From: Somniosus microcephalus
Taxonomy: Eukaryota
Direction of reading: 5' to 3'
Assembly (NCBI GenBank): GCA_052327205.1
Contig: JBMRGM010000043.1
Coordinates: 31,496,001 to 31,560,000 of the forward strand
DNA: 64,000 nt
The notes under the pieces were generated by a model that had not been told where the DNA came from, ran no database searches, and saw nothing but the letters and a program-made list of their open reading frames with translations. The position numbers and the translations under genes were made by a program. Positions 143-63,357 of the stretch are shown here, piece after piece. Every line of letters begins with the position of its first letter. Position 1 is the first letter of the stretch.

Positions 143-376
143 CTTCTGGACCGGAAGTGCTGGTTAGTTATCCCAGCAGTGGAGTCGTAAAGGAAGGAGA
201 TACATTTAAACTGCAGGGCCGATACACTTATTGGTGGAAAAATAATGAAAAGTTACCTGAATCTTATGGGGATATTTATGAATCGCTTGTCGACAGTAGC
301 AGTGGCGGCTCTGACCAGTGTGAAATGTTTTCGGTAGAATGGCGGAGGAGTGAGACTTTGGAAGTGGTCACCATCG
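143..376 (+). CDS. Copy A Ig exon 1 (degenerate C2-type Ig domain)
   Basis: ttctgcAG acceptor, G/GTAGGT donor, 234 nt open; VKEGDTFKLQGRYTYWWKNNEK...SGGSDQCE...SETLEV. The B-strand Cys position reads Gly and YxC reads DQC. Confidence 0.7.
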
Positions 377-1088
377 GTAGGTGAACTTTGACACTTAAAA
401 TCTGTATTTATCTACCGTCTTTCACGACCTCCGATAGCACCATAGTGGGCAGCGAGTGAGCCAGGCCTATTGTTGATTATTGGCTGCTGAGTCAAACCGC
501 TGGAAGTGGCCAGCTTCGGTCGCTGAACTTTGACCCATAGTCAGCTCAGCTCTTGTCCCGAAAGGTTACGTTTTTAAAGAGGCCTCTCACTAAATCGTAA
601 GACAGTGTAGCAAACATATTATATACTTGAACAAAATTGCCAAATGTTCACCGGGGTGAAGCGTGCGGCCAGTCCACAAAACTGAAGTCCCTCTTCCCTG
701 ATACCATTCTGGTGCAACTCCCTTCAACCAGCTCTGTTCTAAATAGAACAATCCCAGCTCCTTTAGTCTCACCACACCTGATGAACAAATAAAAGTCGCT
801 CCTTGAGAGAGGGCCGAGTTTGTTGCTCATTTGTAGAATCGGGTTTCTAAGTAAAAGTTATTTGATGAACGTTTGCAGGACAACATACGGGGAGTCAGCT
901 GAACATTAGAAGGGACACGTGACTTTATAATGCCACACCTGTCGCTATGGCTTTTCGGGTTATAGATGTGTTCATTACTGAAGTGATTAGTATAGCTGCA
1001 CTTTAAAGGAAATATACTATAGGATGTCATACATGTAATTTAACATATTCCAATTTGTACTTACTTAATATTTCTTTCATACTGTCAG

Positions 1089-1349
1089 CTTCTGATATGA
1101 TTATAACTCTTAAAGTAAATCCAAGAGCCGCGCTGTCAGGAGAACCAATTATCCTGAATTGTTTGGTGTCTGACCAGAAAGGGACAGGATACTTCCTGTG
1201 GTATCAGAAAGAAGAGATAATAATTGGAATTTTTCAATCTCAATACATCATAGCTAAAGTGGATATTGCAGATGAGGCATCTTATCGGTGCGAACACAGA
1301 ATATGCTACAGGAAGTGGCTCTCACCGGAAGTTAACCTCACCATAACAG
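1089..1349 (+). CDS. Copy A Ig exon 2 (FcR D1-like)
   Basis: AG/GT bounded, 261 nt, open; GEPIILNC...WYQK...DEASYRC...SPEVNLTIT; paralog at 33063-33344. Confidence 0.85.
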
Positions 1350-2908
1350 GTTAATCCCTGGTTTGGTTGTTTTCCTCCAAAATTTGCTGCTTGGTAATTT
1401 GCGGAAAGATGGAAAATGAATCGAAGTGCATTCTTTGACCAGAAAAGTTCTGATGAAATTGGTAAATATTTGCAATTACTGGGAAAACATCCCAAGCTGG
1501 GCACTTTAGGCAAGTTTCTGGGTCGCATGTGGCAACATAACACACTCTGTTACTGTAAGGGCCCCATGAATCCATAGGAGGGGAGGTCTCCTTCTCGGTT
1601 GCACCTGAGAACTATTGAGAAATGTCGTGGGGGGTCATTTGCAATTCATTTCCGTGCTCTCAAGCTGCTGTGCGATTTCATGTGTAACCCCGTGCTCATA
1701 TCACTGGGACTAGCGTCAGTAATAAGAAGGTGGTTAGAATGTGGAACTCGCTCCCACAGGGAGTAGTTGATGAAACTGCATTTAATGTGAAGATAGGTAG
1801 GCACATGTGGGAGAAAGCAATATATGGATATGTTGCTGGGGTAGATGATGAAAGGTGGCCAAAGACACGTGTTGAGGATAAGCACCTGCATGGACTTATA
1901 GGGCCGAATGACTCTCTGCTGTAAATACTGGGAGCAATTTACTATGAGTCTGGTGGTGGTGATCCAGTTTTCCCCAATAGTTTCCTATCCATTTAGCCAT
2001 GGCGGGCCCCAAGAAAGGGAGGCTCTTGAACAACACTGGTTGTGGAGCTTTCATCGGTTATAATCTGCCAAAGAAAGTCTTTGTGAGGATCCAGGGGCAT
2101 CCTAAAGATATAACAAGGTAGGTAGTTATTTGACTTAAATACTCGCACCTGCCGATCTTAGGTCCTGGAAGACTTTGAACTGCTAATCTTCGGCTGCAGC
2201 CTGAAAGCTCCATTTCAAAGTTAACATGAGTCCATTACCCATGCTCTCGGGCCTACTGTTGTGTTTGTAACCCAATGTAAGACCATCCCAACATAGCAGG
2301 ATTTGATGCTAAAGGATGGGAGTTGGTACCTGAGTCAGGCTTATAGCTGAGGCCTAGAAGCATTGGGGCGCTCCTTTCCTTATGTTCCCAAAGCATTTCT
2401 GGCATCCTGATCCGGCTGGGCGTCTCAGAATGCAAAATGAGCTGGAGTCACTCCTTCCAGAATCTGGTGGGATGGATGGAATGCCCCTCAAAAAATCCGG
2501 TGTAATTTCCATCTTTTGAAATCAATGGAATACATATACGACGGGTTCAGTAAGCAATAAGTGATACTTTGTGCCGGATTTTCTATTCCCTTTTCTGCTT
2601 ATGAGTTTCTGAACCGCTGTACACAACATGGATTATTTCAGAGTTCCAACCTAAGAAGAGCTGTGCCAAATGATGGGGAAGTTCTGCATGAGGAGAGCAA
2701 AATCAATAAACAGCAATTGGAACCATCAGTAAATTCAGCACCAACTGACCACTGCTTCCTTTCTGTTCTGTATTTGCCCCAGCCTGGATTGGAGTTGCGA
2801 TTGGGATTATATAATGTGTCCAATGTATTCGGGCTGTTGTCAAAGCAGTTCTTAGTTTGATTTAATCATTTGTTAAACTAAACCACGAAATTCTTCTCCC
2901 ACCATTAG

Positions 2909-3163
2909 ATCGCAATGTGGCCTTCCAGGTCGACCCATGTTCGGTTTTGGAAGGAGATGTTCTGAATCTGAATTGTCGGTACAGGAAGTATTATTTCTGG
3001 AAATATGTTGGCTTTTTCAAAGGCAATAGAAGGATCCACTCAATGAAGTTGAATCATTGGAATGCTCTGCATAGCATTAGGGTGAATAGTTCAAATGACA
3101 GCGGATCGTACCATTGTACTAATGACAAAAAGATTTCTCGAAGTGTTCATGTTCACGTTCATG
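2909..3163 (+). CDS. Copy A Ig exon 3 (FcR D2-like)
   Basis: AG/GT bounded, 255 nt, open; FQVDPCSVLEGDVLNLNC...VGFFKG...DSGSYHC...SRSVHVHV. Confidence 0.85.
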
Positions 3164-3508
3164 GTATGTATTTCAATTGGTGATATCCCTCTTTAATATT
3201 TATAAATATTACAGATCTGAGAAGTTCTGAATCTGTACTAAATTATACATAGTTCTGTGATTCTGGAATAATGTGCTCACGTTAGATCATATGATGTTTA
3301 TCTAACAATGTGCTACTTTACTCGATATTTAACCCAGGGTGGGTCTCCTCCCATGCCAGCACCAGCAGATTTCCTTCTCCTGCCTCCCCTCCTCGGAGGT
3401 GAATTTGTCGGCTTCTCCCATTACCACCCTGTCACATCTAGAGGCTGACAGAGAGTTTTCTCCCAGGAAATCGAAATATGAAGCTGCCTCTCTTCCTTAA
3501 TTACCACG

Positions 3509-5103
3509 GTGTGGAGATGCCGGTGTTGGACTGGGGTGTACAAATGTAAGAAGTCTCACAACACCAGGCTATAGTCCAAAAGTTTTATTTGAAACCACAA
3601 GCATTCGGAGCGCTGCTCCTTCGTCAGGTGAAGTGGAGAGATGCCTATAGACACAGATTATATAGTCAGTGAATAATGCCAGATGATTACAGGTAATCTT
3701 TCTAACTGCCATTTATCACACCTCGGCAGAGAGATAATCACAGCAATCAAAGGTGTGAATGGTGTCCAAACAGGTCAGTCAGGAAAACATTACATCGAAG
3801 AACAATGAGGTGGGGTCACAAGGGCTAATATGTTGCAGATGCTGGGGTCTGTAAGAAAAACAAAAAGCAGACAAAAACATTTTCTTTGCTGGAAATCACA
3901 GCAGGTCCGGCCGCACCTGTGTAGAGAGAACAAGCCAACGACGACTCGAGTCTGGAAGACCCTACATCAGGTGCGGTTACATGTAGCGTGACATGATCCC
4001 GAGATCCCGGTTGAGGCCCTACTCATGAGTTAGGAACTTGGCTATCAGTTTCTGCTCTACCATTTTGCATTGTCGTGTGTCTCGAAGGCCGCCTTGGAGA
4101 ATGCTTACGTGAAGATCGGAGGCTGAATGTCCTTGAGCACATCGCTAAGTCCATCTCCACGCCTCCACTACTCACCTTCTAACAGCTGCCTAACCTCAAA
4201 CAGACCATTGTTCGCAGCTTTCAGGAGATCAGCGGCCATGACACCACACAACTCTGCCATGGCAACCTTTCCAACACATGCCAGATCATCAACACAGATA
4301 CCATCATCACACGTGAGGACACCACCCACCAGGTACATGGTACATACTCATGTGACTCGGCCAACGTTGTCTACCTCATACGTTGCAGGAAAGGATGCCC
4401 CGGAGCATGTTACATTGGCGAGACAATGCAGAAACTGCGACAACGGATGAACGCACACCACGCAACAATCGCCAGGCAGGAGTGTTCCCTCCCAGTCAGG
4501 GAACACTTCAGCAGTCAAGGACATTCGGCCTCCGATCTTCGGGTAAGCATTCTCCAAGGCGGCCTTCCAGACACATGACAATGCAAAATCATACAGCAGA
4601 AACTGACAGCCAAGTTCCGCACTCATGAGGACGGCCTCAACCGGGATCTTGGGTTCATGTCACGCTACATGTAATCCCACCTGACGAAGGGTCATCCAGA
4701 CTCGAGTCCTCGTTGGCTTGTTCTCTGTACACAGATGCGGCAGGACCTGCTGTGATTTCCAGCAAAGAAAATGTTTTTTTCTGTTTTTTGTTTTTCATAC
4801 AGACCCCAGCATCTGCAACATTTTACCCCTTGTGACCCCACCTCATTGTTCTTTGATGTAATGTTTTCCTGACTGACCTGTTTGGACACCATTCACACCT
4901 TTCATTGCTGTGATTATCTCTCTGCCGAGGTGTGATAAATGGCAGTTAGAAAGATTACCTGTAATCATCTGGCATTATTCTCTGACTATATATTCTATGT
5001 GTATAGGCATCTCTCCACTTCACCTGACGAAGGAGCAGCGCTCCGAAAGCTTGTGATTTCAAATAAAACTGTTGGACTATAACCTGGTGTTGTGTGACTT
5101 CCA
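3509..5103 (+). mobile_element. Penelope-like retroelement, 5'-truncated, with inverted pseudo-LTR
   Basis: GIY-YIG remnant near 4345-4580 (SCDSANVVYLIRCRKGCPGACYIGETMQKLRQRMNAH); arms 3551-4136 and 4515-5100 are inverted; imperfect TSD aat(t/a)accacg; absent from copy B near 37630. Confidence 0.85.
5020..5056 (+). ncRNA. Minimal type I hammerhead ribozyme motif in Penelope pLTR
   Basis: TCAC-CTGACGA-aGGAGCagcGCTCC-GAAA-GCTT-GTGA: core boxes, stem II, stem I (TCAC/GTGA), palindromic AAGCTT in place of stem III. Confidence 0.7.
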
Positions 5104-5809
5104 AATAACCACGATGAGGAGTTAACAAAAAGTACCAGCAGGTCCACGTGAGCCCCTGAAACTTCAGTGGTGGGTCCGCTGATGGACTTTGTGGAAGGAT
5201 AGAATAAGCAGTGAGCTCCTCTCCACTCTGTTTTGCTATTTTCACTTACGTGTTTGACGTAAGCTTAGATACAGACTCCTAATGAACTATGGGAGCAGAT
5301 TCCCTTGGATGTCCTTGTCATCACAGCGGGTGATTTGTATCATCACTGATCCATCGCCCTGGCCATGAGAATCCAGATTCTTTGTAATTTCAGATGGTGA
5401 CAGCTGAGCTGGGGGCTGGCTGGGGACAGAGCGATGTAGCTGTGAACATTTGTGGAGTTCACCCTGGTCATAGTAGATAGTGAGACACAGCAGGGTATGG
5501 CTAAAAGAGAAAAGAACTATGGGAGGATTCCTGCTGAAACATATGTCTTGTCCTGTTTGGGATTCCAGTTTCAGCACAATATATTAAGCAGATTAACTTC
5601 TCTGCAAACAACGCAGCGAGAGGAATTCCATAACAATATGGTAATGCTTCCTGCTCCATTGTTCCACAATACAGCTGCTGGTTACCATTAATTGCAGACG
5701 CCCCTCGTGGCGATTCTCGGTATTGCCTTGCTCCTGGTAATAAGCTCTGCTGTTTGTTCAACTCAGTGATCGGAACTGTGACCTGTCAATCCAGATTCTG
5801 TTTTCGCAG

Positions 5810-6086
5810 AACTCTTCTCCAAACCTAAACTGAGGACTGACCCTGCTGGTGAAATATTTGAGGGACACCAGTTAGTATTCATCTGTATTATTGAAACAAT
5901 GCCGGACAGTATTGAGCTTCAATACTCATTTTACAAAAATGGCAAAGCTCTGATATTGACTTCATACAACAACTTTAAGCTTAGAGACAGCTTCTTTGAA
6001 AGACTCGGGGACTTACCTGTGTGAAGCAAATGTTTCCTACCACGGTGTGAAAAAGAAGAGTGATGAGGTTTCCATTGAGGTTAAAT
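5810..6086 (+). pseudogene. Copy A Ig exon 4 (FcR/FCRL D3-like), frameshifted
   Basis: ELFSKPKLRTDPAGEIFEGHQLVFIC...LQYSFYKNG then DSGTYLCEA in another frame; 277 nt; 2 nt missing near 5982 relative to copy B. Confidence 0.85.
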
Positions 6087-7398
6087 GTAATTACAGCCAG
6101 CTGTAATTATTGTTCATCTTTGATTTAATGGGGCTTATAGTTAAATAAACATACGGGAGGGATCCAGTCTGGTAAAGGATTTACCCACATGTTTATCACG
6201 TAATAACTCAATTTTGAATGCAACATGTTTAAATCATAGCGCCATCTGGTTATTAGACTATCCATACATTTGCTGAAAACCGAATTTGTAAAAGCTGCAA
6301 CGTTTGAGGACCAGTGCCCACTCCCAGTGGGTAATATAATCTTCTTGCAATAGTGTGGAATTGGGCGCTATTCAATTTACCTCCCATTATATGTCCAGTC
6401 CGTTTTTGCCTCCATTAATTTTCAATGGACGGGAAAATCATGCGTAGTGTAGAATTGGTGCAAATTTCGGTATCATGCGTTTTAACCCATGGCCCAAAGC
6501 TAAAGTTACCACCTCTGTTTCTGTTTGGCAGATTCAGCAGCGGGCAGAACCTGGTCAGGAACAGCAGGGTGATTAACCAGACAATGCCTTACCACTTACT
6601 AGCCCCGGAAATCTTTTATAGTTGAAAACTCGGGGGTAAAGTTTAACATTGAGAGCGCTAAATTCGATCGGCAGAAAATGGAATTGAAATTGGCCTCTGT
6701 TTGTAAAGGGTGACCAATCTGCTCCACCGGTTTTGCACCCCAGACAACTTGAATTTTCACCCCCTCCAATTTCAGTAGAGGTGGCGGCAAAACGCCCGAG
6801 GTCACTAAAGTCTGTGCCTCTGATGCCCGGGGATTCCTTCCCACTCCGTTAGATCCGGCCAATCATAACTCTAGCTTCGCATTTTCCACGCAGCAGGCAA
6901 TCTGAACACAAGGTGGGAGTTATCAATCCTGTGTCGGCAGTGTATTTCAGAAATATTGTATTGTCAGTAGCTGAGCGTTTAACATGAATGTCCTAAAATT
7001 TGCAGGTGCTGCAACAATGATCAAGGTTATTTCAGTATTTAAGACCGGGGAGTAAAGCATCGCCTGGGCGGAGAGCTGAGTTCAAATGGTGGAGAGTTGG
7101 GGAATAATCTCAAAGGACTCGTAGGATGGTTCTTCCATTCATTTCAATGGAAGGGTTAACTGGTTCCCCAATCTAGCCACGACAGATTGTTCAGATCTCA
7201 GGTGATAACTCTGTCGGTGTCCCAAACTGCATATTCCCGTAGCAGAGCGCAATCAAGGATTATTGAAAGCCTCTTTCTCTGAGCCGCTGTCGGCGTTTCA
7301 TTGTTCTGCTCATTAACATGAGTTGTCCAAACACATAAATTGTTAAGTCTGTGATGGATGTGGAAACCGGAAAATCCACATGTCATTCTATTTTATAG

Positions 7399-7677
7399 AG
7401 GTCTTCTCCATACCTACAGTGAGGGCTGAGTCTGGAACTCAATTATTTGAGGGCCAACAGTTAAATCTCATCTGTTTTGTTAAAATATTTCGATCCAATA
7501 CTTCCTTGAGACTCATATTTTACAAGGATGGACAATCTCTCACTTCAGCGGCAGACCACAACTATTACATCAAGGAAACATCCCTGCCGGACGATTCGGG
7601 GATTTACCAGTGTGAAGCAATTAATTTGAACAGTGCTCAGTTTCTTTAGCTCAATCAGGTTTCCGTTTCAGTCGGAC
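7399..7677 (+). pseudogene. Copy A Ig exon 5 (D3-like) with premature stop
   Basis: EVFSIPTVRAESGTQLFEGQQLNLIC...FYKDG...DSGIYQCEA; 279 nt; TAG at 7647-7649 lies inside a micro-inversion. Confidence 0.85.
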
Positions 7678-8069
7678 GTGAGTAAAATTTAAGATAATTG
7701 TTTATCACTTTTAAAGAGAACATGAACATCATAGAAAACGGGCGGCTCTGATTCAACATATCACCAGGGAAGTAAAATTGTTTTCTCCAGGATAGACTTG
7801 AGGTACTGGGACTAACACTACCGGATTAGCCATGGCTAAGGATTATTTAATTAGTGTTTTTTACATGCCAATTGCGAGATAGGGCGATTCTGGAAATGTA
7901 TTCTCTCTGATTGCAAAGACAGGAAGGAGGGATCAGTAATATTTAATTATCATTAAATCGGGAAGGTAGCACTTTGAAGTACGTTCTTTACATAGACGAG
8001 TGCTGGAACATAGAATGATTTGCCAGGTGGAGCGGTGGAGTTAGTTACCATAGAATTAATGTAGAGTAG

Positions 8070-8903: not shown

Positions 8904-9206
8904 TGCCTGTAGCTTGTGCTTCTCTCACTTCCAATACAAACAAAACGGAGATTTCAGCGGGGGACCGTCTCGTTCTCCAGTGCCTGGTGATGAGAGGCAC
9001 TGTACCACTTTTCCGCTGGTACCTGAACAACCAACTGTTAGAAAACACCAGCGATTCTTAACACTTCAACACGGACGGGAGTGAACTCATCATCAATTCA
9101 TTCCAGAAAGGGCATGGAGGGCGCTATCACTGTGTAGCGACCAACAGAGGGATGTATGAAAGGATTTTTAATACAACCAGCAATTATATCGATGTCACTG
9201 CACCAG
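8904..9206 (+). pseudogene. Copy A Ig exon 6 (membrane-proximal, FCRL D4/D5-like) with in-frame TAA
   Basis: VPVACASLTSNTNKTEISAGDRLVLQCLVMRGTVPLFRWYLN...DS*HF...GGRYHCVATN; 303 nt; TAA at 9059-9061; AG/GT bounded. Confidence 0.85.
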
Positions 9207-10521
9207 GTAACTGATTCATTGTGCTTGATATGAATATATCAATAACTTTTCTTTCGGCAAAACAAACAGTATATTGAATTCGCATGATTTATGCCTCAGA
9301 GGACACATCACAACGCAGGTGAACATTTATAAGTTGAACTTATAGACAAGAAATTGAATATTATAAGGGAAAATGTCTCTGAAATAAACTAGCAGCATTT
9401 CCCAAGTGCGTTTTATTACTTGAAATGGACAGGGGAACTACAAGAGCCTTGGAGAGAAAGTGAGAGTGTGAGAGATTGGAAGGGAAAAGAAAGCCCTGTC
9501 TGAAAATAATGGTCCTGTGAAGGTCTTTGAAGCAGGATGTAGTAGAGATGGAAAGAGGATTAATGAGGTGGTTTAGGAGCGTTGAGCCAAAGCACTTTCA
9601 CTAATGGTGTGACGAAGTAAGCGGATAAGTCGAATCGGCCAGAAACAATTGGCTGAATGGTTTAAAGACAGAGAAAAATGTGGACGAGATTTGTCTGAAC
9701 CATGCTGAATATGAGGAGCAGTGGTTTAAATTTGATGCCTTGAAGGACAGGGAGCTCGATGGACAAAATGTCGAGCAGCTTTTATTGTGGCACAGGAAAG
9801 TTTGGATTAGTTGGAGATTGTGGAAGGCCGGGCTTGGAACCGAGAAAGGAACGCATTGAAGTCAATGAGGCGAGAGCTGAACAATCCATGGATCAGTGGT
9901 TCAGGAGTACTAAATGGGGGAGGGAGGAAATCATTTCTATGCAGCTGTTAATATGTCAGAACCTCCTCTGCAAAGCGAATTCGTTGCGGTTGCAGTGATA
10001 GGCGAGTTATTATAAGTATCCCTGTGGCAGAACGCAACAAGTGACGCAAAGACAGATCACCCTGCTTGTGCCGTAAGCTTGGATGGTGTAACATCTTCTT
10101 TGACATCCATCTGTGTGAAGGGAGGCCCTGGTGACACAGGTGAATGACAAAAAAGTACAAGGAATGTCATTTTAACGCATCAAGTTTTTGATTCTGAAAA
10201 CCAGTACAGTTACTTGTCTGTTTAACTTAATAGAACGCTTTGTATAAATGCCAAATAGGGTGAATTTATGCAGATAGGTTAATGCTTCAAATCTTAATAC
10301 CACAAGCAGTCATTTCTGGGCTATAGATTTTAGACTATAATTTGTCGACAGTCGTTGCTAATGTTCTTCAGCTCAAATAGAATATATAGGTTCGAGACAA
10401 TTAATTTTGTTCGATTGGCATCTGTGGAGCACTCGGTCTGCTGTCTCGAGTTATGTTGAAGGCTTCACCCTGATGGCTAATATTAACTTTGGGAGAGGTG
10501 TAACATGAGTTATATCGATTT

Positions 10522-14355: not shown

Positions 14356-14457
14356 TGCAGGGTCCCACAACCGCGATCAGAGCCTCAGTTCTTACACTTT
14401 CTCTTGTCGCTGCCCTGATTGCACTGGTTCTCGTCAATCTTCCCAACAAGAAACAAG
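14356..14457 (+). CDS. Copy A transmembrane exon (splice donor mutated)
   Basis: VQGPTTAIRASVLTLSLVAALIALVLVNLPNKKQ, 102 nt; followed by TTGAGT where copy B has GTGAGT. Confidence 0.8.
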
Positions 14458-14973: not shown

Positions 14974-15004
14974 ACAATTCTTCAAAATTTTCACAACAGC
15001 TGGG
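14974..15004 (+). CDS. Copy A cytoplasmic mini-exon 1
   Basis: Polypyrimidine tract + CAG, GTAAGT donor; 31 nt, phase 1-2, DNSSKFSQQLG; paralog 50874-50901 differs by one codon. Confidence 0.7.
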
Positions 15005-16608: not shown

Positions 16609-16700
16609 GAAGGCAACTGGAAATAGATCTCGACCCCCGAGTGAAGAGAAGTCTGCAGACAATTCCGAGTATGCAGGTGTGGTATCTGCCCAAATCACCG
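16609..16700 (+). CDS. Copy A cytoplasmic exon 2 with ITIM-like SEYAGV
   Basis: Phase 2-1, continues the frame of the mini-exon: KATGNRSRPPSEEKSADNSEYAGVVSAQIT, GTAAGC donor; frame kept in paralog despite 6-nt indel. Acceptor (AAG) is weak. Confidence 0.65.
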
Positions 16701-16977
16701 GTAAGCTCGACCTGATCTGCATGTGATGAACTGTAGATAGCTCGGGGTATCATTTCCATTCAGCATCAATATCACTTACACTTTCTCAATCTCTATGTCT
16801 ATGTCAAGTCTACTTCTATGACTCTCTCAATCGAACAGCATCTCTCATTCTAAATCTATCTTTCTCTATTGCACTAACTCACTATCTCTATGTACCTATC
16901 TATCTCTACCTCTATCTCTGTATCTCTTTCGGTATCTTTCTATATCCCTTTCTATTTCTGTCTCTCCTATCTCTATT

Positions 16978-29659: not shown

Positions 29660-29690
29660 ATGAAGCACATCTGTCGCCTTCTGATCTTCT
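29660..29690 (+). CDS. Copy B signal-peptide exon S1
   Basis: ATG, MKHICRLLIF, T/GTAAGT donor (phase 1); paralog at 63327. Confidence 0.8.
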
Positions 29691-32241: not shown

Positions 32242-32271
32242 TGCAAATTACTCATCAGGCGACCACACAAG
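32242..32271 (+). CDS. Copy B signal-peptide mini-exon S2 (30 nt)
   Basis: tcttctctctttcAG acceptor, G/GTATGA donor, phase 1-1, LQITHQATTQ; joins S1 to the Ig exon in frame. Confidence 0.75.
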
Positions 32272-33062: not shown

Positions 33063-33344
33063 CTTCTGATATGAGTGTAAGTCTGAAAGTCGAGCCAAGA
33101 GCCGCGCTGTCTGGTGCAAATATTGCACTGAGGTGTTTGGCGCCTGACCAGAAAAGGGGAGGAAACTTCCATTGGTATCGAAACGAAAAGTTAATAGAAG
33201 GACATTCTCAATATGTGTACTTCATAATTCAATCTGAAGACACCATTGTTAAAGTGGATATTGCAGATGAGGCATCTTATCGATGTGAACTCATAAGAGA
33301 CAACAGGAAGTGGGTCTCACCGGAAGTAATGGTCACCGTAACAG
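33063..33344 (+). CDS. Copy B Ig exon (paralog of A Ig2), intact
   Basis: AG/GT bounded, 282 nt, open; IALRC...WYRN...DEASYRC...SPEVMVTVT. Confidence 0.85.
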
Positions 33345-37060: not shown

Positions 37061-37308
37061 ATGGCGATGTATCCTTCCAGGTCGACCCACCTTCGGTTTT
37101 GGAAGGAGATGTTCTGATTCTGAATTGTCGGTACAGATACTATTATTGGAGCAATAAAGGTGTTGGCTTTTACAAAGGCAATAGAAGGATTCACTCAATG
37201 ACGTTGAATAATCCTAAAGCATTAGAGTGAAAAGTTCAAAAGACAGCGGATCGTACCATTGTACTTTTGACAAGATGAAATCTCGAAGTGTTCATATTCA
37301 CGTTCAGG
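37061..37308 (+). pseudogene. Copy B Ig exon (paralog of A Ig3), frameshifted
   Basis: 248 nt; ~10 nt missing near 37215 relative to copy A, TGA at 37228-37230; DSGSYHC resumes in another frame. Confidence 0.85.
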
Positions 37309-40853: not shown

Positions 40854-41131
40854 AACTCTTCCCCAAACCTAAACTGAGGACTGACCCTACAGTTGAAATA
40901 TTTGAGGGACACCAGTTAGTATTCATCTGTATTATTGAAACAATGCCGTACAGTAATGGGCTTCAATACTCATTTTACAAAAATTAGCGAAGCTCTGATA
41001 TTGACTGAATACAACAACTTTAAGCTCACGGAGACAGCTTCTTTGAAGGATTCGGGGACTTACCTGTGAAGCAAATGTTTCCTACCGCGGTGTGAAAAAG
41101 AAGAGTGATGAGGTTTCCATTGAGGTTAAAG
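40854..41131 (+). pseudogene. Copy B Ig exon (paralog of A Ig4), dead
   Basis: Acceptor AG>TG at 40852-40853; +1 insertion giving TAG at 40985-40987; 2-nt loss in the YLC codons (tacctgtgaagc). Confidence 0.85.
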
Positions 41132-42439: not shown

Positions 42440-43095
42440 AGGTCTTCACAGAAATCACAGAAACCCCACAGTGCAGATAGAGGCCATTTCGGCCCATCGA
42501 GCCTGCACCGACACATATCCCACCCGATCCCCGTAACCCCTACACCAACACATATCCCACCCGATCCCCGTAACCCCTACACCAACACATATCCCACCCT
42601 ATCCCCGTAACCCCACGTATTTAATCCCCCTAACACTAAGGGTCAATTTATCATAGCCAATCAACCTAACCCGCACATCTTTGGACTGTGGGAGGAAACC
42701 CACGCAAACACGGGGAGAATGTCTGTGTGGAGTTTGCACAGTCACCCGAGGCCGGATTCGAACCCGGGTCCCTGGCGCTGTGAGGCAACAGTGCTAACCA
42801 CTATGCACCGTGCTGCAGGTCTTCTCCAAACCTACATTGAGGGCTGAGTCTGGAGCTCAATTACTTGAGGGCCAGCAGTTAAATCTCGCCTGTTTGGTTA
42901 CAATATTTCGATCCAGTACTTCCTTGAGACTCGTATTTTACAAAGATGGACAAGCTCTCACTTCAGCGGCAGACCACAACTATTACATCAAGAAGATATC
43001 TCGGCCGGACGATTCGGGGATTTACCAGTGTGAAGCAACTACTTTCAACAGTGAGGTGAAGAAACTGAGCAACCAGGTTTCCGTTTCAGTCAGAG
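42440..43095 (+). pseudogene. Copy B Ig exon (paralog of A Ig5), interrupted by a SINE
   Basis: Original acceptor at 42438-42439, SINE 42448-42816, then the full open 279-nt exon 42817-43095 with GTGAGT donor. Confidence 0.85.
42448..42816 (-). mobile_element. HE1-like V-SINE inserted in a coding exon
   Basis: 8-bp TSD AGGTCTTC (42440-42447, 42817-42824). Confidence 0.92.
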
Positions 43096-43847: not shown

Positions 43848-44892
43848 AGTAGGAATCATTGTAGTTCCAGGATCAGGCTTTACTCTATTAATTCCACCTA
43901 TTGCTAAAGTAGGAGAGGGGTACGTGCGCCCAATATAGGTGTGGTAACCTACTGACGAGGCTGTTTATTATGATGAGTGCCCTATTTCACTTTGAATGTT
44001 GCAACACAAATTCAACAAAAGCAAAGTAACTAATAAATGGTAGTATTTACAGGACTCCCAGTGTCAAAACCGGAACTGACAATCAGCCCTTAATACAAGG
44101 AGAAACAGCGTCATTAACCTGCTCAGATTTAAACCGTAGTGTCCAAGAACGTTAGTTAAAACTGCTATTCAGAAGATTAGAACTAACTTTCTCAAGAGCA
44201 ATTGGGGATGGGGAACAAATCATGGTCTTGCCAGCGACGCTCACATCCAGTGAATGAATAAAAGATGAACAGGACTGATGGTACGACACAAGGAAAATTC
44301 TGAATTATGAGCTTTCACGAATCCCTTTACAGCTTTCCTAAGCTTTAATTATGAACTTGAACTTGCTGAATTATTTCCTGGGGGGGGATTTCGGGAAGCA
44401 GTTTGGGAAATTATGTCCAAAGTGGCTACAATTTATTTGACTGATGGAGGAGCGATTGGAACTGGTAATCCTAATAGGCCACAATCAAAGAGCTGAAGGA
44501 TGCAACGATATAGTTAAACTTAGAGGAGATATTTCAGAAAGAAGGTGAATACGAGGACATGGAATTCAAATTTGATACAATGGTGGCTGCGGATCCAGAT
44601 GTTAAAAACGTGTGCGAGTAGAATTTAGTGCAGAACAGAGACATTTGGATCATCTGGAGTTTGTAGATGGTGGGTTTTGGAGTCCAGAAAGGAAGGCGTT
44701 GTAATAATCGAATCTCGAGATGAGAAATCCATGGATTAGTTTTTTATGACCGAGAGGCTGCGGTGGAGCTGGAGGGAGTCAAGTCACTGCCGATCTGAAA
44801 TGTATTGCTAATGATACACATGGCGATAGATTGAATCTGTATTATTTGAAAAGGTGTTATGTTACTCATGAGATATCTTTATTTGATTCCAG

Positions 44893-44994
44893 TGCAGATT
44901 CTCACAAACACGATCAGAGCCTTCGTTCTTACACTTTTCCTTATGGGTGCCCTGATTGCACTGGTTTGGGTCAATCTTCCCACCAAGAAACAAG
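44893..44994 (+). CDS. Copy B transmembrane exon, intact
   Basis: VQILTNTIRAFVLTLFLMGALIALVWVNLPTKKQ; ttccAG acceptor and GTGAGT donor; 102 nt. Confidence 0.85.
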
Positions 44995-45613: not shown

Positions 45614-48600
45614 TGATACGCTTATCAATTACTTCATAAAAGGTGATGAGTCGAAGAAGAGATGACGAGTCGAAAGAAGAGATGAATAAGGCTTTTATTA
45701 GCTAAGAAGAGACCATGCTTCTTCGTGAGTGACTGAACAAGTCTGAACGAAACCCACACAGTGGTGGGTGGAGTCAGCTGAGGCATGCCTCCATACACAG
45801 CGCCACCCAGAGGTGGCAATATACAATACAGTGGTTTACCACATTCACCCCTTGTTTAATGTGAAGTCCGGCGGGGTGAAGGGTACTACAAGTTAAGTCT
45901 ATCAGGAGGCCTTGTCTGACGTCTTGATCGTCGTGGTGGCGGCGGTGGTGTTGCAGCATCCGACGTCGGGTCTGGTGTCTGGGTGGTTGGCGAAGATTCC
46001 TGGGGCTTTGGCATGCCGTCTGCAGGGGTTGGGTTGGGAGGGGTGGTGGGGGATAACAGTGGTAAGGGGGATAATGGTGGTAAGGGGGATAACGGTGGTA
46101 ATTCAGGGGTACCCGAGGGTGCGAGATCTCGTATGGAGACCGTGTCCTCCCGCCCGTCTGGGTATGTCACCCAGGCATACTGGGGGTTGGCGTGTAGGAG
46201 GTGCACCCGCTCGACCAGGGGGTCCGTTTTATGCGTCCTCACGTGCCTCCGCAGTAGGACGGGCCCAGGAGAAGTCAACCATGCCGGTAGCGAGGTTCCC
46301 GATGTAGACTTCCGGGGGAAAACGAACATTTTCTCATGAGGGGTCGCATTAGTGGCAGTACAAAGCAGTGACCGAATGGAGTGGAGCGCTGCAGGGAGGA
46401 CCTCCTGCCAGCGGGAGGTCGGAAGGCCCTTAGATTTTAGTGCTAAGAGGACTGCCTTCCAAACCGTCGCGTTCTCCCTTTCCACCTGGCCGTTCCCCCG
46501 GGGGTTGTAACTGGTGGTCCTGCTCGAGGCGATACCTCTTGTTAGCAGGTACTGCCGAAGTTCGTCGCTCATGAACGATGAGCCCCTGTCGCTATGTATA
46601 TAGCTGGGGAACCCGAACAGAGCGAAGATGTCATTCAGACACTTGATGACCGTGGTACTGGTCATGTCTGGGCAAGGGATGGCAAAGGGGAAACGGGAGT
46701 ACTCATCAACTATGTTGAGGAAGTACACATTGCGGTCAGCGGAGGGGAGGGGCCCTTTAAAATCGACGCTCAGGCGTTCGAAGGGGCGGGTGGCCTTGAT
46801 CAGGCTTGCTCTGTCCGGCCTGTAGAAGTGCGGTTTGCACTCGGCGCAGATTTGGCAGCTCTTGGTCATGGTCCTGACCTCCTCGATGGAGTAGGGCAGG
46901 TTACGGGATTTGATAAAATGGAAAAACCTGGTGACCCCCGGGTGGCAGAGGTCATTGTGGAGGGACTGCAGCCTATCACTCTGTGCGTTGGCGCATGTAC
47001 CACGTGATAGGGCATCTGGGGGCTCATTGAGTTTCCCTGGCCGATACAAGATATCATAATTGTAGGTGGAGAGTTCGATTCTCCACCTCAAGATCTTGTC
47101 GTTCTTGATTTTACCCCTCTGCTTATTATTAAACATAAAAGCTACTGAACGCTGGTCAGTGAGCAGGGTAAATCGTTTCCCGGCCAGGTAATGCCTCCAG
47201 TGACGCACCGCTTCTACAATAGCCTGGGCCTCCTTTTCGACGGAGGAGTGTCTCGTCTCGGGGCCCTGGAGGGTCCTTGAGAAAAAGGCCACGGGTCTGC
47301 CCGCCTGGTTAAGGGTCGCGGCTAGGGCAAAGTCGGAGGCATCGCTCTCCACTTGGAAGGGGATGGACTCATCCACCGTGTGCATTGCGGCCTTCGCGAT
47401 ATCGTTCTTGATAAGAGTGAAGGCTGCACATGCCTCTGGTGTCAGGGGGAAGGAGGTGGCTTTGATGAGGGGCCTGGCTTTGTCTGCATAGAGGGGCACC
47501 CACTGGGCGTAGTAGGAGAAAAACCCCAGGCATCTCTTCAGTGCTTTTTGGCAGTGGGGAAGGGGTAGCTCCATTAGGGGGCGCATTCTGTCGGGGTCGG
47601 GCCCGATGACTCCGTTCTCCACCACGCAGCCGAGGATGGCCAGGCGCTTGGTGTGAAACATACATTTTTCCTTATTGTACGTTAGGTTCAGCCGTTGGGC
47701 CGTACGGAGGAAATTTGCTAGATTAACGTCGTGGTCCTGCTGGTCGTGGCCGCAGATGGTGACGTTATCCAAATAGGGGAAGGTTGCCCGCAGCGCGTTC
47801 TGGTCAACCATTCGGTCCATCTCCCTTTGGAAGACCGAAACCCCGTTGGTGACGCCGAAGGGGACCCTAAGGAAGTGGTAGAGGCGGCCGTTTGCCTCGA
47901 AGGCAGTATACTGGCGGTCCTCATGGCGGATGGGCAGCTGGTGGTACGCTGACTTAAGGTCGATGGTGGAGAATACTTTGTATTGCGCAATCTGATTGAC
48001 CATATCAGATATGCGAGGGAGGGGGTACGCGTCCAGCTGGGTGTACCGGTTTATGGTTTGGCTGTAGTCGATTACCATGCGGCGTTTTGCAGTGGTTTTA
48101 ACGACTACAACCTGGGCTCGCCAGGGGCTAGTGCTACCTTCGATAATGCCCTCCTTCAATAGCCGCTCCACCTCAGAGCTGATAAAAGCTCTGTCCCCGG
48201 CATTGTACCGCCTGCTTTTGGTAGCGATGGGTTTACAGTCGCGGGTGAGGTTAGCGAACAGGGGAGGGGGGGGGACTTTTAATGTGGAAAGGCTGCAGAC
48301 TGTGAGTGGGGGGAGGGGTCCACCGTATGCTAGTGTGACACTCTTAAGGTGGCACTGAAAATCCAACTCTAGCAGGACGGCAGCGCAAAGACGGGGCAGG
48401 ACTAGCAGTTTAAATTTTTTATATTCAGTGCCCCCTACTGACAGGGTCACCACACAGTAGCCGCTGATGTCCCTTGACTGGGACTTGGACGCCATAGAAA
48501 TGCGATGGTGCGTTGGCAGAATCGTGAGGGAGTGGCTACGTACCGTGTCGGGGTGGACGAAACTCTCTGTGCTCCCGCTGTCGATCAGGCAACTGGTGGC

Positions 48601-49902
48601 GCGGCCGTTTACCGCGATATCCTTCATGGAGCTGGATAGATGGTGAGGGAGGGCTTGATCCAGCATCACGGAGGCCAGTATGTGGCTTAGTGAGTCACTA
48701 TAGTCATCCGCCGAGACGGTGGTCGGTTCCGGTGACGAAATGGCGGTTGAGTGCGTTGGATACGATGGCGGCGGATGCCATGCGGCCGGGGGTACACAAA
48801 ATGGCGGATAAGATGGCTGCTCCCACGGCCCGCACGCTGCGCTGCTGGCTGGCTTCCCCTTGCAGGCGTTAGCGTAATGGCCTTTCTTCCCGCAGCCCGA
48901 GCAGGTAGCTGTCTTAGCTGGGCAGTGCGCTCTGGGATGTTTTAACTGGCCACAGAAATAGCATTTTTGGGCCTGGTTACTGGGCATCGAAGCAGTTCTT
49001 ACCGGAGGCTGCTGTCTCGGTTGGGTCGCTGCAGCGGTTGGTGCCGGGGGCGGCGGTCCCGTGTCCCACGGTTTCGATTGCCATGTCTCGGCGCCGTTAC
49101 GGGGGTATGCCTCGAGGTTTCGGTGGGCCTCCTCTAACGAGAGCGCAAGGGCAATGGCCGTCTTCAGGTCGGGTTCCTTGCTTTCTAGCAGTCTCTGCCG
49201 GGTGTGGTCTTACTGGAGGCCCCTGACGAAGGCATCACAGGCGAGTCCCTGCGCGTGCTCCACAGCCGTTACCGCTTTACAATCGCAGTCTCTGCAGAGT
49301 GCCAGTAGCGCCCGTGCAAATGCCCCTACCGATTCTCCCGGTTGCTGCCTGCGGGATCCCAAGAGGTGTCGGGCGTAAATTGTGTTCACTGGGCGCGTAT
49401 ATTGCCCTTTTAGTAGCTCGAGGGCCGCCACGTACGTATTAGAGTCCTGGATTAGCATATATACTTGATGGCTCACCTGGGCGGTCAAAATTTTCAGTTT
49501 GTGATCCTCCTCTGTAACCTGTGAGATTGCGAGGAAGGATTCAAAGCAGCTCAGCCAGTGTTCAAACTTGGCTGATGCACCCACCTCTTGAGGGTCGAGG
49601 TCCAGGCGTGGTGGTCTGAGGGCTCTCAGCAATGTCTGCTGTATCCGTTGCTGTTGTTGCTCCTCAGGTGTCGCCATTTAACTTTTAGCTAATAAAATTG
49701 ATACGCTTATCAATTACTTCATAAAAGGTGATGAGTCGAAGAAGAGATGACGAGTCGAAAGAAGAGATGAATAAGGCTTCTTCGTGAGTGACTGAACAAG
49801 TCTGAACGAAACCCACACAGTGGTGGGTGGAGTCAGCTGAGGCATGCCTCCATACACAGCGCCACCCAGAGGTGGCAATATACAATACAGTGGTTTACCA
49901 CA
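45614..49902 (-). mobile_element. Near-intact Ty3/Gypsy LTR retrotransposon
   Basis: LTRs 45614-45843 (3') and 49699-49902 (5'), TG...CA, 5-bp TSD CCATT, PPT AAGGGGTGAA (45844-45853 on -), domain order gag-PR-RT-RH-IN. Confidence 0.97.
45886..49677 (-). CDS. Gypsy gag-pol polyprotein with one in-frame stop (49210-49212)
   Basis: CCHC knuckle (CSGCGKKGHYANAC), protease LIDSGS, RT YLDN, RNase H SDASD/EKE/TDQ, integrase HxxxxH..CxxC and DDE; ORFs 49210-49677 and 45886-48987 share a frame with 74 open codons between. Confidence 0.93.
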
Positions 49903-50873: not shown

Positions 50874-50901
50874 ACAATTCTTCAAGAATTTCACAACTGG
50901 G
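50874..50901 (+). CDS. Copy B cytoplasmic mini-exon 1
   Basis: 28 nt, phase 1-2, DNSSRISQLG, canonical sites. Confidence 0.7.
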
Positions 50902-53322: not shown

Positions 53323-53408
53323 GGAGACAACTAGAAACAGACCTCCAGGTGAAGAGAAGTCTGCAGACAATTCCGAGTATGCAGCTGTGGAATCAGCGCA
53401 AAGCACCG
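53323..53408 (+). CDS. Copy B cytoplasmic exon 2 with ITIM-like SEYAAV
   Basis: 86 nt, phase 2-1, ETTRNRPPGEEKSADNSEYAAVESAQST, GTAAGC donor. Confidence 0.65.
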
Positions 53409-53785
53409 GTAAGCTCGACCTAATCTGCATGTGATGAACCGTAGATTGTTCGGGGTAACATTTCCAGCGGGAGCACTCAATACCGTTATGGCTTCGGTGG
53501 AAGATCAGCGAAATCTCCAGACAGATGAGCCTTTCTGCAAGTTTTCAACCGAAATTCCACAGAAGTTACGACGAGGCTCTGGGAAAAGCCACATAGAAAT
53601 TCTATTTCCTCATCTGCGTACATTCAACACAATATAGCGTTAGATTTTCCCCTTCACCGTCTGGACTTTCAGCATCAATATCTCTAACAATTTCTCAAAG
53701 TCTATGTCAAGTCTATTTCTATGTCTCTGCCTATGTCTATGTCTCTGTCTATCTCCAGCTCTATGCCGAAATCTATGTCTACCTC

Positions 53786-56328: not shown

Positions 56329-56360
<32 letters not shown>

Positions 56361-61244: not shown

Positions 61245-61860
61245 CAAAACATATGCGATCCTGTGCTTCACAAAGAGAGGCGTAGAGTGAAAAAGCCAGG
61301 AAGTTAGGCTAAATCAATATAAATCACTGGTTCGTCCCCAGCTAGAATGTTGTTTCCAGTTCTGGGCACCGCACTTTAGGAAGGACGTGAAGTCTTTGGA
61401 GAGGGTGCAGGAGAGATTTATTAGAATGGTTCCAGGGATGAGGGTTTACAGTTACGTGGATAGCCGAGAGCAGCTGGGGTTGTTCTTCTTAGAGCACAAA
61501 AGGCTAAGAGGAGATTTGATAGAGTTCTTTAAAATGATGAAGTATTTAGGTAGACTAAACAAATGACTGAAGCCTCCATAACCAAACGGCAGATAATTAA
61601 GTTGATTGGCAAAAAAAGCAGAGGCGACATGAGGAGAAACTTTTTAACACGAGTGTTTAGGATATTGAATGCATTGCCCAATAGGGTGGTGGATACAGAT
61701 TCAATAGCAGCTTTCAAAAGCGAATTGGATAAATACGTGATGGAGAAACAAACTGCAGGGATATGGGGCAAGAGCAGGGGAGTGGGGCAAACTGGATTGC
61801 TCTTCGAAAGAGCCAGAGCAGACTCGAGGGGACGAATGGCCTCATTCTCTGCTGTACTAC
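61245..61860 (+). mobile_element. CR1-type LINE 3' fragment (paralog of 25640-26280)
   Basis: LVRPQLECCFQFWAPHFRKDV; MRRNFLTRVFRILNALP. Confidence 0.85.
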
Positions 61861-63326
61861 CCTATGCTACTATAAAATAATAGACCCGTGCCAGTAGCAC
61901 AGTATAGATGCAATTTGTAATGCTGGGGCAAATGTTTCACAGTCATACTTAGTAAATGTATTCACAGGCTTATACATCTGCTTATGGCGACACTGATATG
62001 GCTAATAGATTCATACAACACATGCTCAGTAATTAGAATGTTGCACCACAACAATAACAACTTGCATGGATAATTTATTTTAATCATATTCAGCACTGTG
62101 TGGGTAAGATGTTCCATTGCCCTGCATGCCTGCAATTAGATGGCTAAACTTATCTAGAGTGCAAAAATTAATGTTAAAATATAATTAGATTATTCGTTCT
62201 GGTAGAGCAAAGTTAATGGTTACCTGGAGTGAGCCGGGTGGTGGGATTAGATTGGGCAGCTAAAGCAGATACACCAGATGAGCCTGTGTTTAGGCTCCGG
62301 CAATTTGTGAGTTGAATCACCTCTTTGTAATACACCGGGTTAAACTCTCGGGACTTTAATGGTTAATGGTGCCAGAGTGAAACACTTTCAGTGGTCACAG
62401 TTCCCACTGGTACCAGCCCATCACCTCGGTTCCCCCTCTACCGTTGTGCCAAGCCAGCTGGGGTGACCGCTTCCGTAAGACCGTGAGAAAAACAAGCCTT
62501 CCGCCTGGGACCACAGACCAGGCCAGTCTCTGTGTTAACGGTACAAGCTGCGGTTAGAATAAATCATGTTTTAAACAGATTCCAGAGATGTCTCCGGCCT
62601 GTATTCCAAATGTTCGCTTCTGATAAGAATTTATTTTAAAACTGCTTGAGCTCAGTTCACTTTTCAGCGTTAGCGTGGACTCGCCATCGCGGTTTAAGTT
62701 CCCCTTTTATCCACTGTGGTCAGAAGTCACAGTGATCTCAGTGCGCAGTCGCCTGGTGCATGGGCAGTGAGCTCCACAGCTGCAGAGTGCTCCCGGGGAA
62801 CTCGCTCCAGCCGCTGTCTCCTCATTCCCCGTAAGTACAGACTCGGGATCTGCGCGTGTGGGCGTTTGGTACTGAAGAAGTAGAACAGTGTCAGCGGGTA
62901 CAATTGTCGGGAGCAGGACTGGGAAGCGGAACAATGCGCTTGGGAATAGATTGTTCTGTGTTTGACGGAATCAATCTGTTCAGGCGCTCAGTTGAAATGT
63001 TCACCCAAATCTGAATAAATAGAGGCGGCATTGAAACAAAGAAAACAATGATCCATGGGTTTTTAATATTTCACATGGCTCTCTTAAAGGCGAGCGACTA
63101 TCTGCAAAGTGGAATAATGCAATGCTTTAGGGAAAGGGCAGGGGAGTGGGACCAATTAGCAAGTTCTTTCGAAGAACCGGCACAGGCATCAGGGCCGAAT
63201 GACCTCCTTCGGCGCTGTATGATTTTTGATTTCACTTTACAGATAAAAAGAACTGAAAACAGCTGATCCGAAGCGAGCGACTTCACAGAGGGAGGGGAGC
63301 TTCTGCTCGCATCACCCGCTTTCGAA

Positions 63327-63357
63327 ATGAAACACATCTGTTGCCTTCTGATCTTCT
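63327..63357 (+). CDS. Copy C signal-peptide exon S1 (gene continues beyond window)
   Basis: MKHICCLLIF, T/GTAAGT; flanks align with 29575-30270. Confidence 0.8.

Follow-up and report, generated by a model that had tools for sequence, protein, structure and literature searches.

The 64,000-nt stretch of Somniosus microcephalus DNA analysed here, the window, is a decayed part of a large tandem array whose genes are most likely Fc receptor-like (FCRL) genes and are likely to encode paired immune regulators of leukocytes. The multi-Ig receptor genes of this array lie head-to-tail on contig C43, in about 40 copies spread over ~1.6 Mb, and the window contains two broken copies (genes A and B) together with the first exon of a third (gene C).

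Gene content of the window and turnover of the array

All gene models are on the + strand, and positions refer to the whole window. Gene A comprises six phase-1 Ig exons (143-9206), a transmembrane (TM) exon and two small cytoplasmic exons; its two leader exons precede the window by about 1.2 and 3.9 kb. Gene B has two leader exons, four Ig exons, a TM exon and two cytoplasmic exons. The features are as follows:

143..376, +, gene A N-terminal shark-type Ig exon (D0), short and without its first Cys; no Pfam match, weak FCRL D1 profile score
1089..1349, +, gene A second Ig exon (D1/D2-like), open; within the D2 clade (SH-aLRT 95)
2909..3163, +, gene A FcR D2-type Ig exon, open; 34/34 PDB matches are FcgR/FceRI/FCRL4 second domains
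5810..6086, +, gene A D3-type exon (D3a; ELF..P.L), frameshifted; the 99.5% duplicate keeps the frame
7399..7677, +, gene A second D3-type exon (D3b), in-frame TAG, a stop shared with the duplicate
8904..9206, +, gene A membrane-proximal D6-type exon (VPV), in-frame TAA; D6 clade SH-aLRT 97
9950..10004, +, gene A 3' remnant of a D4-like exon
14356..14457, +, gene A TM exon, Arg class; splice donor now TT
14974..15004, +, gene A cytoplasmic exon c1
16609..16726, +, gene A cytoplasmic exon c2, likely terminal: read-through to a stop common to the Arg class
29660..29690, +, gene B leader exon 1, 31 nt
32242..32271, +, gene B leader mini-exon, 30 nt
33063..33344, +, gene B D1/D2-like Ig exon, open
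37061..37308, +, gene B D2-type exon, frameshifted
40854..41131, +, gene B D3-type exon (D3a): acceptor lost, stop, frameshift
42440..43095, +, gene B second D3-type exon (D3b), split by a short interspersed repeat (42448-42816) with an 8-nt target duplication
44053..44125, +, gene B 5' remnant of a D4-like exon
44893..44994, +, gene B TM exon, Arg class, with N-x-x-R
45614..49902, -, LTR retrotransposon of Gypsy type, lying in the intron that follows gene B's TM exon; not present in B's duplicate
50874..50901, +, gene B cytoplasmic exon c1
53323..53434, +, gene B cytoplasmic exon c2, likely terminal by read-through
63327..63357, +, gene C leader exon 1, the only part of C in the window

Gene A is disabled by a D3a frameshift, by stop codons in both D3b and D6 and by a GT-to-TT change of the TM splice donor, while in gene B D2 is frameshifted, D3a has lost its acceptor and contains a stop and a frameshift, D3b is interrupted by the 369-nt repeat and the Gypsy element sits in the intron 3' of the TM exon. 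The first-pass annotation had described at least three head-to-tail genes with a split leader, up to six phase-1 Ig exons, TM and small cytoplasmic exons. The tandem arrangement is real and the exon structure is confirmed on the + strand, but three full genes in the window are ruled out, and A and B are pseudogenes. Gene C, the remainder of which lies in the next 25 kb, reads open over 15 exons (707 aa) and has an uncharged TM and an ITIM tail. No tRNA was found in the window.

The window has a twin of 99.5% identity 290 kb away, 30 loci collapse into 11 groups at at least 99% identity or 7 groups at at least 95%, and an exon of the gene at 30.28 Mb has a copy at 25.29 Mb that is 100% identical. 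These figures would suit a copy number much inflated by uncollapsed haplotypes or mis-assembly, with a true family of about 10-12 genes. We consider such inflation improbable, given that the twins are distinguished by the whole Gypsy insertion and the D3a frame, that copies in inverted orientation occur around 30.67 Mb, and that exon-bearing bins of gene C have 2-4x the contig depth of flanking bins (run X1; a rough measure). We reject the view that the twin of the window arose by assembly duplication alone.

The birth-and-death expansion that had been proposed is supported. With symmetric phase-1 exons, unequal crossing-over could shuffle domains and broken exons could be skipped, and A and B would be casualties of array turnover. 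The family, first described as lineage-specific, is elasmobranch-wide and already automatically named in RefSeq. A window exon has two full-length relatives, both of them shark proteins, in agreement with the cartilaginous fish origin read from the letters alone, and more occur in numerous sharks and rays (Heterodontus, Heptranchias, Chiloscyllium, Stegostoma, Scyliorhinus, Mustelus, Carcharodon, Cetorhinus, Pristis, Mobula, Hemitrygon, Narcine). RefSeq and UniRef models from sharks and rays, called 'Fc receptor-like protein 2/3/4/5', are 61-76% identical to a window exon; these names are automatic and their numbering does not denote orthology.

Affinity of the Ig domains

Six of the eight Ig pieces scanned match Ig models of Pfam at E<=0.01 (best 2e-11), and the exons are therefore not a product of chance; no Pfam Ig match was obtained for the degenerate first exon of gene A or the 61-aa D3a piece preceding the frameshift. 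All 34 PDB matches of the window D2 exon are second domains of FcR/FCRL proteins, and the best matches of the window D3 exon are FcgRI D3 and FCRLA, with the second D3-type exon of gene B matching FcgRI D3 best (E 2.6e-11). When scored against HMM profiles of bony-vertebrate domain classes, FCRL D3 was best for 20 of 20 cluster D3-type domains, D2 for all eight D2-type domains and D6 for all six membrane-proximal domains; the D1/D2 resemblance of D0 and the second domain is weak. The VPV domain of gene A, earlier taken for D4/D5, is thus D6-type by its profile score and its place in the D6 clade. Mammalian LILR, KIR, CD22, CEACAM and MILR1 were compared through PDB searches only. LILR identity of the domains was rejected, as FcR/FCRL were matched first and LILRB1 reached only E 4e-4 for one domain.

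Domain trees recovered a D6 clade (SH-aLRT 97), a D2 clade (SH-aLRT 95) and a D3 clade (0.93 in FastTree; SH-aLRT 81 with PECAM D4 inside), with 27 of 191 cut domains omitted from the FastTree set and 110 of 191 from the SH-aLRT set, and with some PECAM and caecilian domains overlooked by the domain-cutting regex. AU tests on single domains reject neither the FCRL nor the PECAM side: p was 0.78 for shark D3 with FCRL D3, 0.90 (at slightly higher likelihood) for shark D3 with PECAM D4, and 0.33 for shark D6 with PECAM D6. In two IQ-TREE trees without support values, PECAM domains are intermixed with D3.

The inseparability of shark D3 from PECAM D4 raises the question of whether the array could belong, as a sister lineage, to the PECAM1/MILR1 side of the IgSF branch that both share, its genes being adhesion-type ITIM receptors that are named FCRL by similarity only. 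Further points in this direction are the D4-like (IPVSKP) domain, which scored best with PECAM D6 in 6/6 cases, several members named 'PECAM-like' in RefSeq, and two of 20 looked-up unnamed matches that carry the name PECAM or PECAM-like. We nevertheless regard this placement as quite unlikely, since the D2 and D6 domains and the tail agree with FCRL, separate PECAM1-like genes exist on contig C21, apart from the array, and an FCRL3-like neighbour of the array has a PPW D1. PECAM1 (CD31) shares related C2 domains, an uncharged TM and ITIMs with the array genes and scores close for the D3- and D4-like domains, but its tail motifs differ, and PECAM D1 was the best HMM class for no array domain, while the C21 domains do score best with it.

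Membership of the array genes in the FCRL family is the most likely assignment. Ectodomain BLASTP returned non-mammalian FCRLs as the top four matches for 4/4 queries; frog PECAM reached up to 150 bits, higher than several mammalian FCRLs. Among the 20 unnamed matches looked up, 15 are named Fc receptor-like (paddlefish, bichir, amphibians, reptiles, mammals), and a horn shark relative matches human FCRL5 at E 1.6e-57. The FcR/FCRL affinity first proposed is hence supported by PDB, by domain profiles and by BLASTP against FCRL5 and non-mammalian FCRLs, but the LITR likeness proposed alongside it was overstated: the family is far closer to tetrapod and ray-finned FCRL/XFL (best FCRL 137-202 bits) than to a mackerel LITR-like protein, the one such reference (57-61 bits), and LITR identity of the domains was rejected.

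A split leader with a mini-exon had been named as typical of FcR/FCRL genes. The split signal peptide is present (31 + 30 nt in 10 of 11 models; in gene v the mini-exon was looked for and not found), but the mini-exon measures 30 nt instead of the mammalian and Xenopus 21, and the array consequently departs from the 30/21-bp leader rule of FCRL1-6, FcgRI and some XFL. This rule is not obligatory, given that only a fraction of XFL genes obey it (PMC2413239).

With non-mammalian FCRL (turtle, alligator, caecilian, coelacanth, paddlefish; Xenopus XFL, PMC2413239), the array shares the D2-D3(n)-D4-D6-TM order, the split leader, a tail on several exons whose tyrosine motifs come in matching order, and lineage-specific expansion with domain shuffling and intermingled TM classes. 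In contrast to these genes, array members have two shark-type N-terminal domains in place of the PPW D1, lack D5, use the 30-nt mini-exon and reside on a leukocyte receptor complex (LRC)-like contig. Human FCRL3/FCRL5 and FcgRI (CD64) have D2 and D3 types in common with the array and are its best solved-structure matches, but identity is 25-31% and mammals are without D6.

Two transmembrane classes

Inhibitory FCRLs recruit SHP-1/SHP-2 via ITIMs and thereby damp activation. One class of array genes combines an uncharged TM with ITIM-type motifs on exons c1-c6 (six of 11 models), and its tail motifs ([LV]xYS.V, DY.[IV]TYA and [IV]YEN) align with those of turtle, alligator and paddlefish FCRL tails; the ITIMs of these multi-exon tyrosine tails would recruit SHP-1/SHP-2 in the same manner. 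The second class, to which A and B belong, has a TM with an Arg at its outer end and a short ITIM-less tail. The Arg is present in all six TM exons of this class (identity 89% within and 76% between classes), and no homologues of the c3-c6/ITIM exons were found downstream of the six genes. An Arg near the outer TM end together with a short tail is also found in activating LILRs (PMC2413239). LILRs belong with CHIR and OSCAR to the LRC receptors, which are physical neighbours of the array, although its Ig domains are not LILR-like. We lean slightly toward a role for the Arg-class copies in activation, for which they would borrow the FcR-gamma chain, whose TM and ITAM exons lie on contig C40. 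The classical FcR TM motif, (M/L)Fxx(D/N)TxL, is absent from the array and, unlike the NxxR-bearing Xenopus TM1 exon, the Arg TM derives from the uncharged TM exon and has its tail on separate exons.

There is a sizeable, though less than even, chance that the family is FCRL but purely inhibitory, with the Arg/short-tail class as a decoy or a truncated side branch that is dying out. Three of five fully modelled Arg genes (A, B and v) are broken, the Asn of NxxR is missing in five of six Arg TMs (the full motif occurs in gene B), and c2 still has a GT donor at its end, making an unrecognised last exon possible. Among the proteins listed, moreover, the Arg class is known from the S. microcephalus genome only: none of 42 from other species (four of them without a TM) has an Arg at the equivalent position, and neither does any RefSeq/UniRef shark or ray model listed. 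Against decay of the class, the Arg and the loss of the basic stop-transfer cluster are kept in 6/6 copies that differ by about 11%, three Arg genes (the modelled w and gamma, and a further copy at 31.37-31.40 Mb) are open from D1 to c2, and a tandem stop after c2 is common to A, B, w and gamma. Open Arg-class copies include those at 30.81 and 31.59 Mb on C43.

Genomic neighbourhood, ligands and expression

The array is flanked on both sides by LILR-like exons, more than 100 in all, and C43 carries the markers NDUFA3-TFPT-PRPF31 at 16.2-16.3 Mb. In human, the order NDUFA3-TFPT-PRPF31-CNOT3 lies beside the LILR genes. After PRPF31 on C43 is only what we take to be a CNOT3-like first exon; it has no Pfam match, and a Pfam Not3 search of the genome matched contig C28 and the unplaced C984 but not C43. 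The markers of the human 1q21-23 block are on other contigs (MPZ, FcR-gamma and a VANGL on C40; PRCC and UFC1 on C41). The array shares its contig with LRC-type markers and not with these of 1q21-23. Twenty 10-kb samples from 25.9-29.8 Mb contained repeats, retroelements and one GPCR, and no synteny marker. The neighbour gene at 25.60-25.70 Mb has the layout leader-D1(PPW)-D2-Ig-D4-D5-D5-TM-ITIM, which resembles the six domains of human FCRL3, and its Mustelus orthologue matches FCRL5 at E 2e-90. The two TM classes and the LRC-like location were absent from the first-pass annotation.

Only tentatively do we suggest that sharks keep an ancestral joint FcR-family and LRC region, in which an FCRL array with inhibitory and FcR-gamma-coupled activating members sits among more than 100 LILR-like genes; on that view the first jawed vertebrates would already have had paired receptors of the FcR family, and the missing shark IgM Fc receptor might be among the members. 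The locus allows the idea that FcR and LRC receptors share an origin to be tested directly by synteny, and it supplies named candidates, together with an adaptor, for the IgM-dependent opsonisation long ago observed in sharks.

Ligand would be bound by the variable N-terminal domains (D1-like, D2 and first D3). Immunoglobulin Fc, in that case probably of multimeric IgM, is a possible but doubtful ligand, and other self or microbial ligands are the likelier candidates. It also seems doubtful that the array genes are the true antibody Fc receptors (for IgM, IgW or IgNAR) behind IgM-dependent opsonisation and cytotoxicity. Human FCRL5 uses D2-D3 on IgG (PMC12757038), IgM-mediated phagocytosis in sharks is reported with the receptor unnamed (PMC5192425), and FcR-gamma is in the genome. 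However, array members have no clear PPW-type D1, and between paralogues dN/dS of the N-terminal domains is 0.91-0.99 versus 0.50-0.65 (pseudogene exons included), a rate of divergence more in keeping with variable ligands than with a constant Fc. Immunoglobulin binding is not family-wide either, because mouse FCRL5 does not bind IgG (PMC12757038).

FCRL, FcR-gamma and LRC genes were not found in sharks by a 2014 survey (PMC4016189), and Fc receptors (2021; PMC7916673) or both Fc receptors and FCRLs (June 2026; PMC13337447) were described as lacking there in later reviews. The presence of all three in this shark genome would make the family as old as immunoglobulins. Two fcrl genes and an LRC-like gene were reportedly described in elephant shark in 2021; this paper, the RefSeq names, a 2024 mention of fcrl3/fcrl5 and the dead state of the window genes reduce the weight of the finding. 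No description of the shark array, its TM classes or its linkage was found in our literature search. Already known are the RefSeq names of shark and ray relatives and, from the 2024 single-cell paper, the expression of genes annotated fcgr1a-like, fcrl3 and fcrl5 in bamboo shark B cells (PMC11372145). Two RNA runs with the same species label, about a quarter to a third of which was read, gave no spliced joints and trace exon depth (<~3). Shark cell-type data in PMC11372145 may bear on expression.

Genes of the window and the surrounding array

The array on contig C43 is a real and uncharacterised shark branch of a known receptor family, and the window itself is mostly pseudogene. The first-pass annotation had counted at least three head-to-tail genes here. 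Exon search and self-alignment confirmed repeated units, namely two paralogous ones ~32-38 kb apart, but of the third only the leader lies within the window:

Gene A: six phase-1 Ig exons, one transmembrane (TM) exon, two small cytoplasmic exons; leader exons just upstream of the window
Gene B: 31-nt leader, 30-nt mini-exon, four Ig exons, TM exon, two cytoplasmic exons
Gene C: window 63327-63357, leader exon only
Window 45614-49902, (-): young Gypsy-type LTR retrotransposon in gene B, 1107-codon open frame, 5-nt target duplication, missing from a twin locus (290 kb distant, 99.5% identical)

Gene A carries one frameshift, two stops (both also present in the twin) and a dead TM donor. Gene B has two frameshifted exons, one lost acceptor and an Ig exon with a repeat inserted eight bases in, as well as the Gypsy element, whose LTRs are identical except for a 26-nt indel. 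Since exon skipping would leave B with only one Ig domain and cannot turn A back into a membrane receptor, we infer that both are pseudogenes. A short interspersed repeat that contains a 37-nt tandem unit occurs at window 19252-19607, 36006-36360, 36388-36652, 42448-42816 and 43587-43843, one copy splitting an Ig exon. Just 5' of each leader exon lies a conserved, partly duplicated block (window 26698-27466 plus 28939-29544; 62308-63060), probably the promoter, and orphan copies of leader and mini-exon are found elsewhere in the array.

Searching the 6.45 Gb genome with one Ig exon type yielded 37 matches among 54 candidates, all on C43, where the window occupies 31.496-31.560 Mb: 34 lie at 30.32-31.85 Mb and three at 25.32-25.45 Mb. 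At least five more genes lack this exon, and the array thus comprises ~40 units. Most copies are very recent, as 30 loci collapse into 11 groups at 99% identity and 7 at 95%. Five of 11 exon-by-exon gene models are open (t, u and C with full tails; w and gamma as far as the second cytoplasmic exon, c2). Genes k and beta each have one broken exon with a lost acceptor, which would be skipped in splicing; the broken models are v, A and B, and alpha has one frameshifted exon. Simple counting on open exons of paralogues (5-13 per type, pseudogene exons included) gave a dN/dS of 0.91-0.99 for the second domain, D2 and the first D3, and of 0.49-0.65 for every other domain type. Three other features were seen in this region:

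C43:31.892 Mb (L072:2172-2591), (-): diverged copy of histone H3 at the array's right edge, probably a pseudogene
C43:28.35 Mb (L209:1868-2794), (+): single-exon rhodopsin-family GPCR frame between two FCRL arrays
C43:29.36 Mb (L214:6921-9332), (-): 804-codon open frame resembling a retroelement envelope gene, no Pfam match

Family identity: FCRL versus PECAM1

The array genes very probably belong to the FCRL family. Both full-length relatives matched by a window exon come from sharks and are called 'Fc receptor-like protein 2'. Among 100 matches of the horn shark protein, elasmobranch proteins ranked best, ahead of mammalian FCRL5 and then of FCRL2/3 and PECAM1. Further bony-vertebrate proteins were ranked by index-free search, and 20 were looked up: 15 bear the name Fc receptor-like, two PECAM or PECAM-like and two hemicentin-like, while one (coelacanth) is unnamed. 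Against solved structures, all 34 matches of the window D2 exon were second domains of FcgR, FceRI and FCRL4, and FcgRI D3 and FCRLA ranked first for the D3 exon; the exon preceding D2 gave weak and mixed matches. Profiles made from domain classes of bony vertebrates placed the array's D3-type (20/20), D2-type (8/8) and membrane-proximal domains (6/6) with FCRL D3, D2 and D6, respectively. For the six D4-like domains the top score was with PECAM D6, by a narrow margin over FCRL D4/D5.

The FcR/FCRL affinity put forward in the first-pass annotation was examined by domain phylogeny. D2 formed a clade (SH-aLRT 95), as did D6 of reptiles, caecilian, coelacanth, paddlefish and sharks (97), but the D3 clade (81) includes three PECAM D4, and AU tests rejected neither the FCRL nor the PECAM grouping, so that single-domain trees leave the two unsettled. 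In whole-ectodomain ranking, non-mammalian FCRLs came top for 4/4 queries with frog PECAM close behind, and the tail motifs follow the FCRL order. PECAM1-like genes were located on another contig, C21, where two such multi-Ig genes stand in tandem (69.78-69.92 Mb; L112, L116-L117). D6 is described as Xenopus-specific (PMC2413239); it extends beyond Xenopus to paddlefish, coelacanth, caecilian, turtle, alligator and sharks (proteins P0161, P0198, P0134, P0159, P0211), and mammals therefore appear to have lost it.

Two fcrl genes and one LRC-like gene have reportedly been described in elephant shark by Wang, Belosevic and Stafford in 2021, and RefSeq names for the shark relatives pre-exist. Literature searches, mostly outside subscription journals, turned up no account of such an FCRL array in elasmobranchs, of its TM classes or of its LRC linkage. 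Cartilaginous fish are without these receptors according to PMC4016189, PMC7916673 and PMC13337447.

Transmembrane classes and the FCRL3-like neighbour

Behind six uncharged TM exons come as many as six cytoplasmic exons bearing ITIM-type motifs. In another six, those of A and B among them, an Arg stands ~19 residues ahead of the cytoplasmic border and the cluster of basic residues behind the TM is gone. Exons c3-c6 are absent from these six genes, and in A, B, w and gamma reading on through c2 leads to a common tandem stop. Activating XFLs and LILRs bind FcR-gamma through an NxxR TM (PMC2413239, PMC4536121). The shark Arg would be a convergent, lineage-specific route to this pairing, because the Asn of NxxR occurs only in B among the Arg-class exons, the exon derives from the uncharged one, and none of the other-species proteins listed has this Arg. 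A candidate partner was found:

C40:10.60 Mb (L132:1504-1593, L176:1567-6092), (-): FcR-gamma (FCER1G), with exons for TM and ITAM; MPZ and a VANGL lie nearby

This call relies on a Pfam match for the TM/ITAM exons, whose motifs we take to be those of FcR-gamma. The gene is reported missing in sharks in PMC4016189.

A further gene lies apart from the main array:

C43:25.60-25.70 Mb (L120-L130), (-): divergent FCRL; copies at 30.24-30.30 and 25.29 Mb

It has an FCRL3-like six-domain layout, comprising D1 with a PPW motif, D2, one unclassed domain, D4, D5 and D5; the TM behind them is uncharged and the tail carries an ITIM. Its Mustelus orthologue matches FCRL5 at E 2e-90. At 30.27-30.30 Mb, a second copy of this ectodomain appears to be joined to an Arg TM; with the ITIM gene at 25.65 Mb it would form a classic pair, although one of its acceptors looks lost.

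Chromosomal setting, expression and ligands

MPZ, FcR-gamma, VANGL, PRCC and UFC1 are markers of human 1q21-23. The first three lie inside 2.2 Mb on C40 and PRCC and UFC1 on C41, placing the array away from a 1q21-23-type block, but amid LILR-like exons and on the contig of PRPF31. The human LRC is flanked by the order NDUFA3-TFPT-PRPF31-CNOT3; at C43:16.21-16.31 Mb (L138-L147), NDUFA3, TFPT (INO80F) and PRPF31 stand in a row, with a CNOT3-like first exon next in line. The remainder of this CNOT3 may sit on the unplaced contig C984, and a Not3 family search gave no match on C43. LILR-like exons flank the array on both sides and form a very large array of their own: 122 of 150 scored matches fall on C43 at 21.5-42.5 Mb (e.g. 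L094:5312-5620), a lower bound as 805 candidates were found. C39, C40 and C41 carry weaker matches. Against the PDB, 21/23 of their matches were LILR, PIR-B and OSCAR, while CEA ranks first and FCRL5 third. LRC genes are lacking in sharks according to the reviews. Further, divergent FCRLs may lie on C40 or C41. Given that PRPF31 lies 9-15 Mb from the receptor arrays, that Not3 is without a match on C43 and that gene order was read in one species, the array could possibly have come to lie beside an LRC-like region by a lineage-specific fusion or translocation.

RNA-seq reads from two runs of unstated tissue returned trace exon depth and zero splice joints. In bamboo shark, B cells express genes that carry the annotations fcgr1a-like, fcrl3 and fcrl5 (PMC11372145), which are likely of the same family as the array. 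Human FCRL5 binds IgG via D1-D3 and mouse FCRL5 does not (PMC12757038), and FCRL membership is therefore no predictor of Ig binding. Shark phagocytosis mediated by IgM is on record (PMC5192425).
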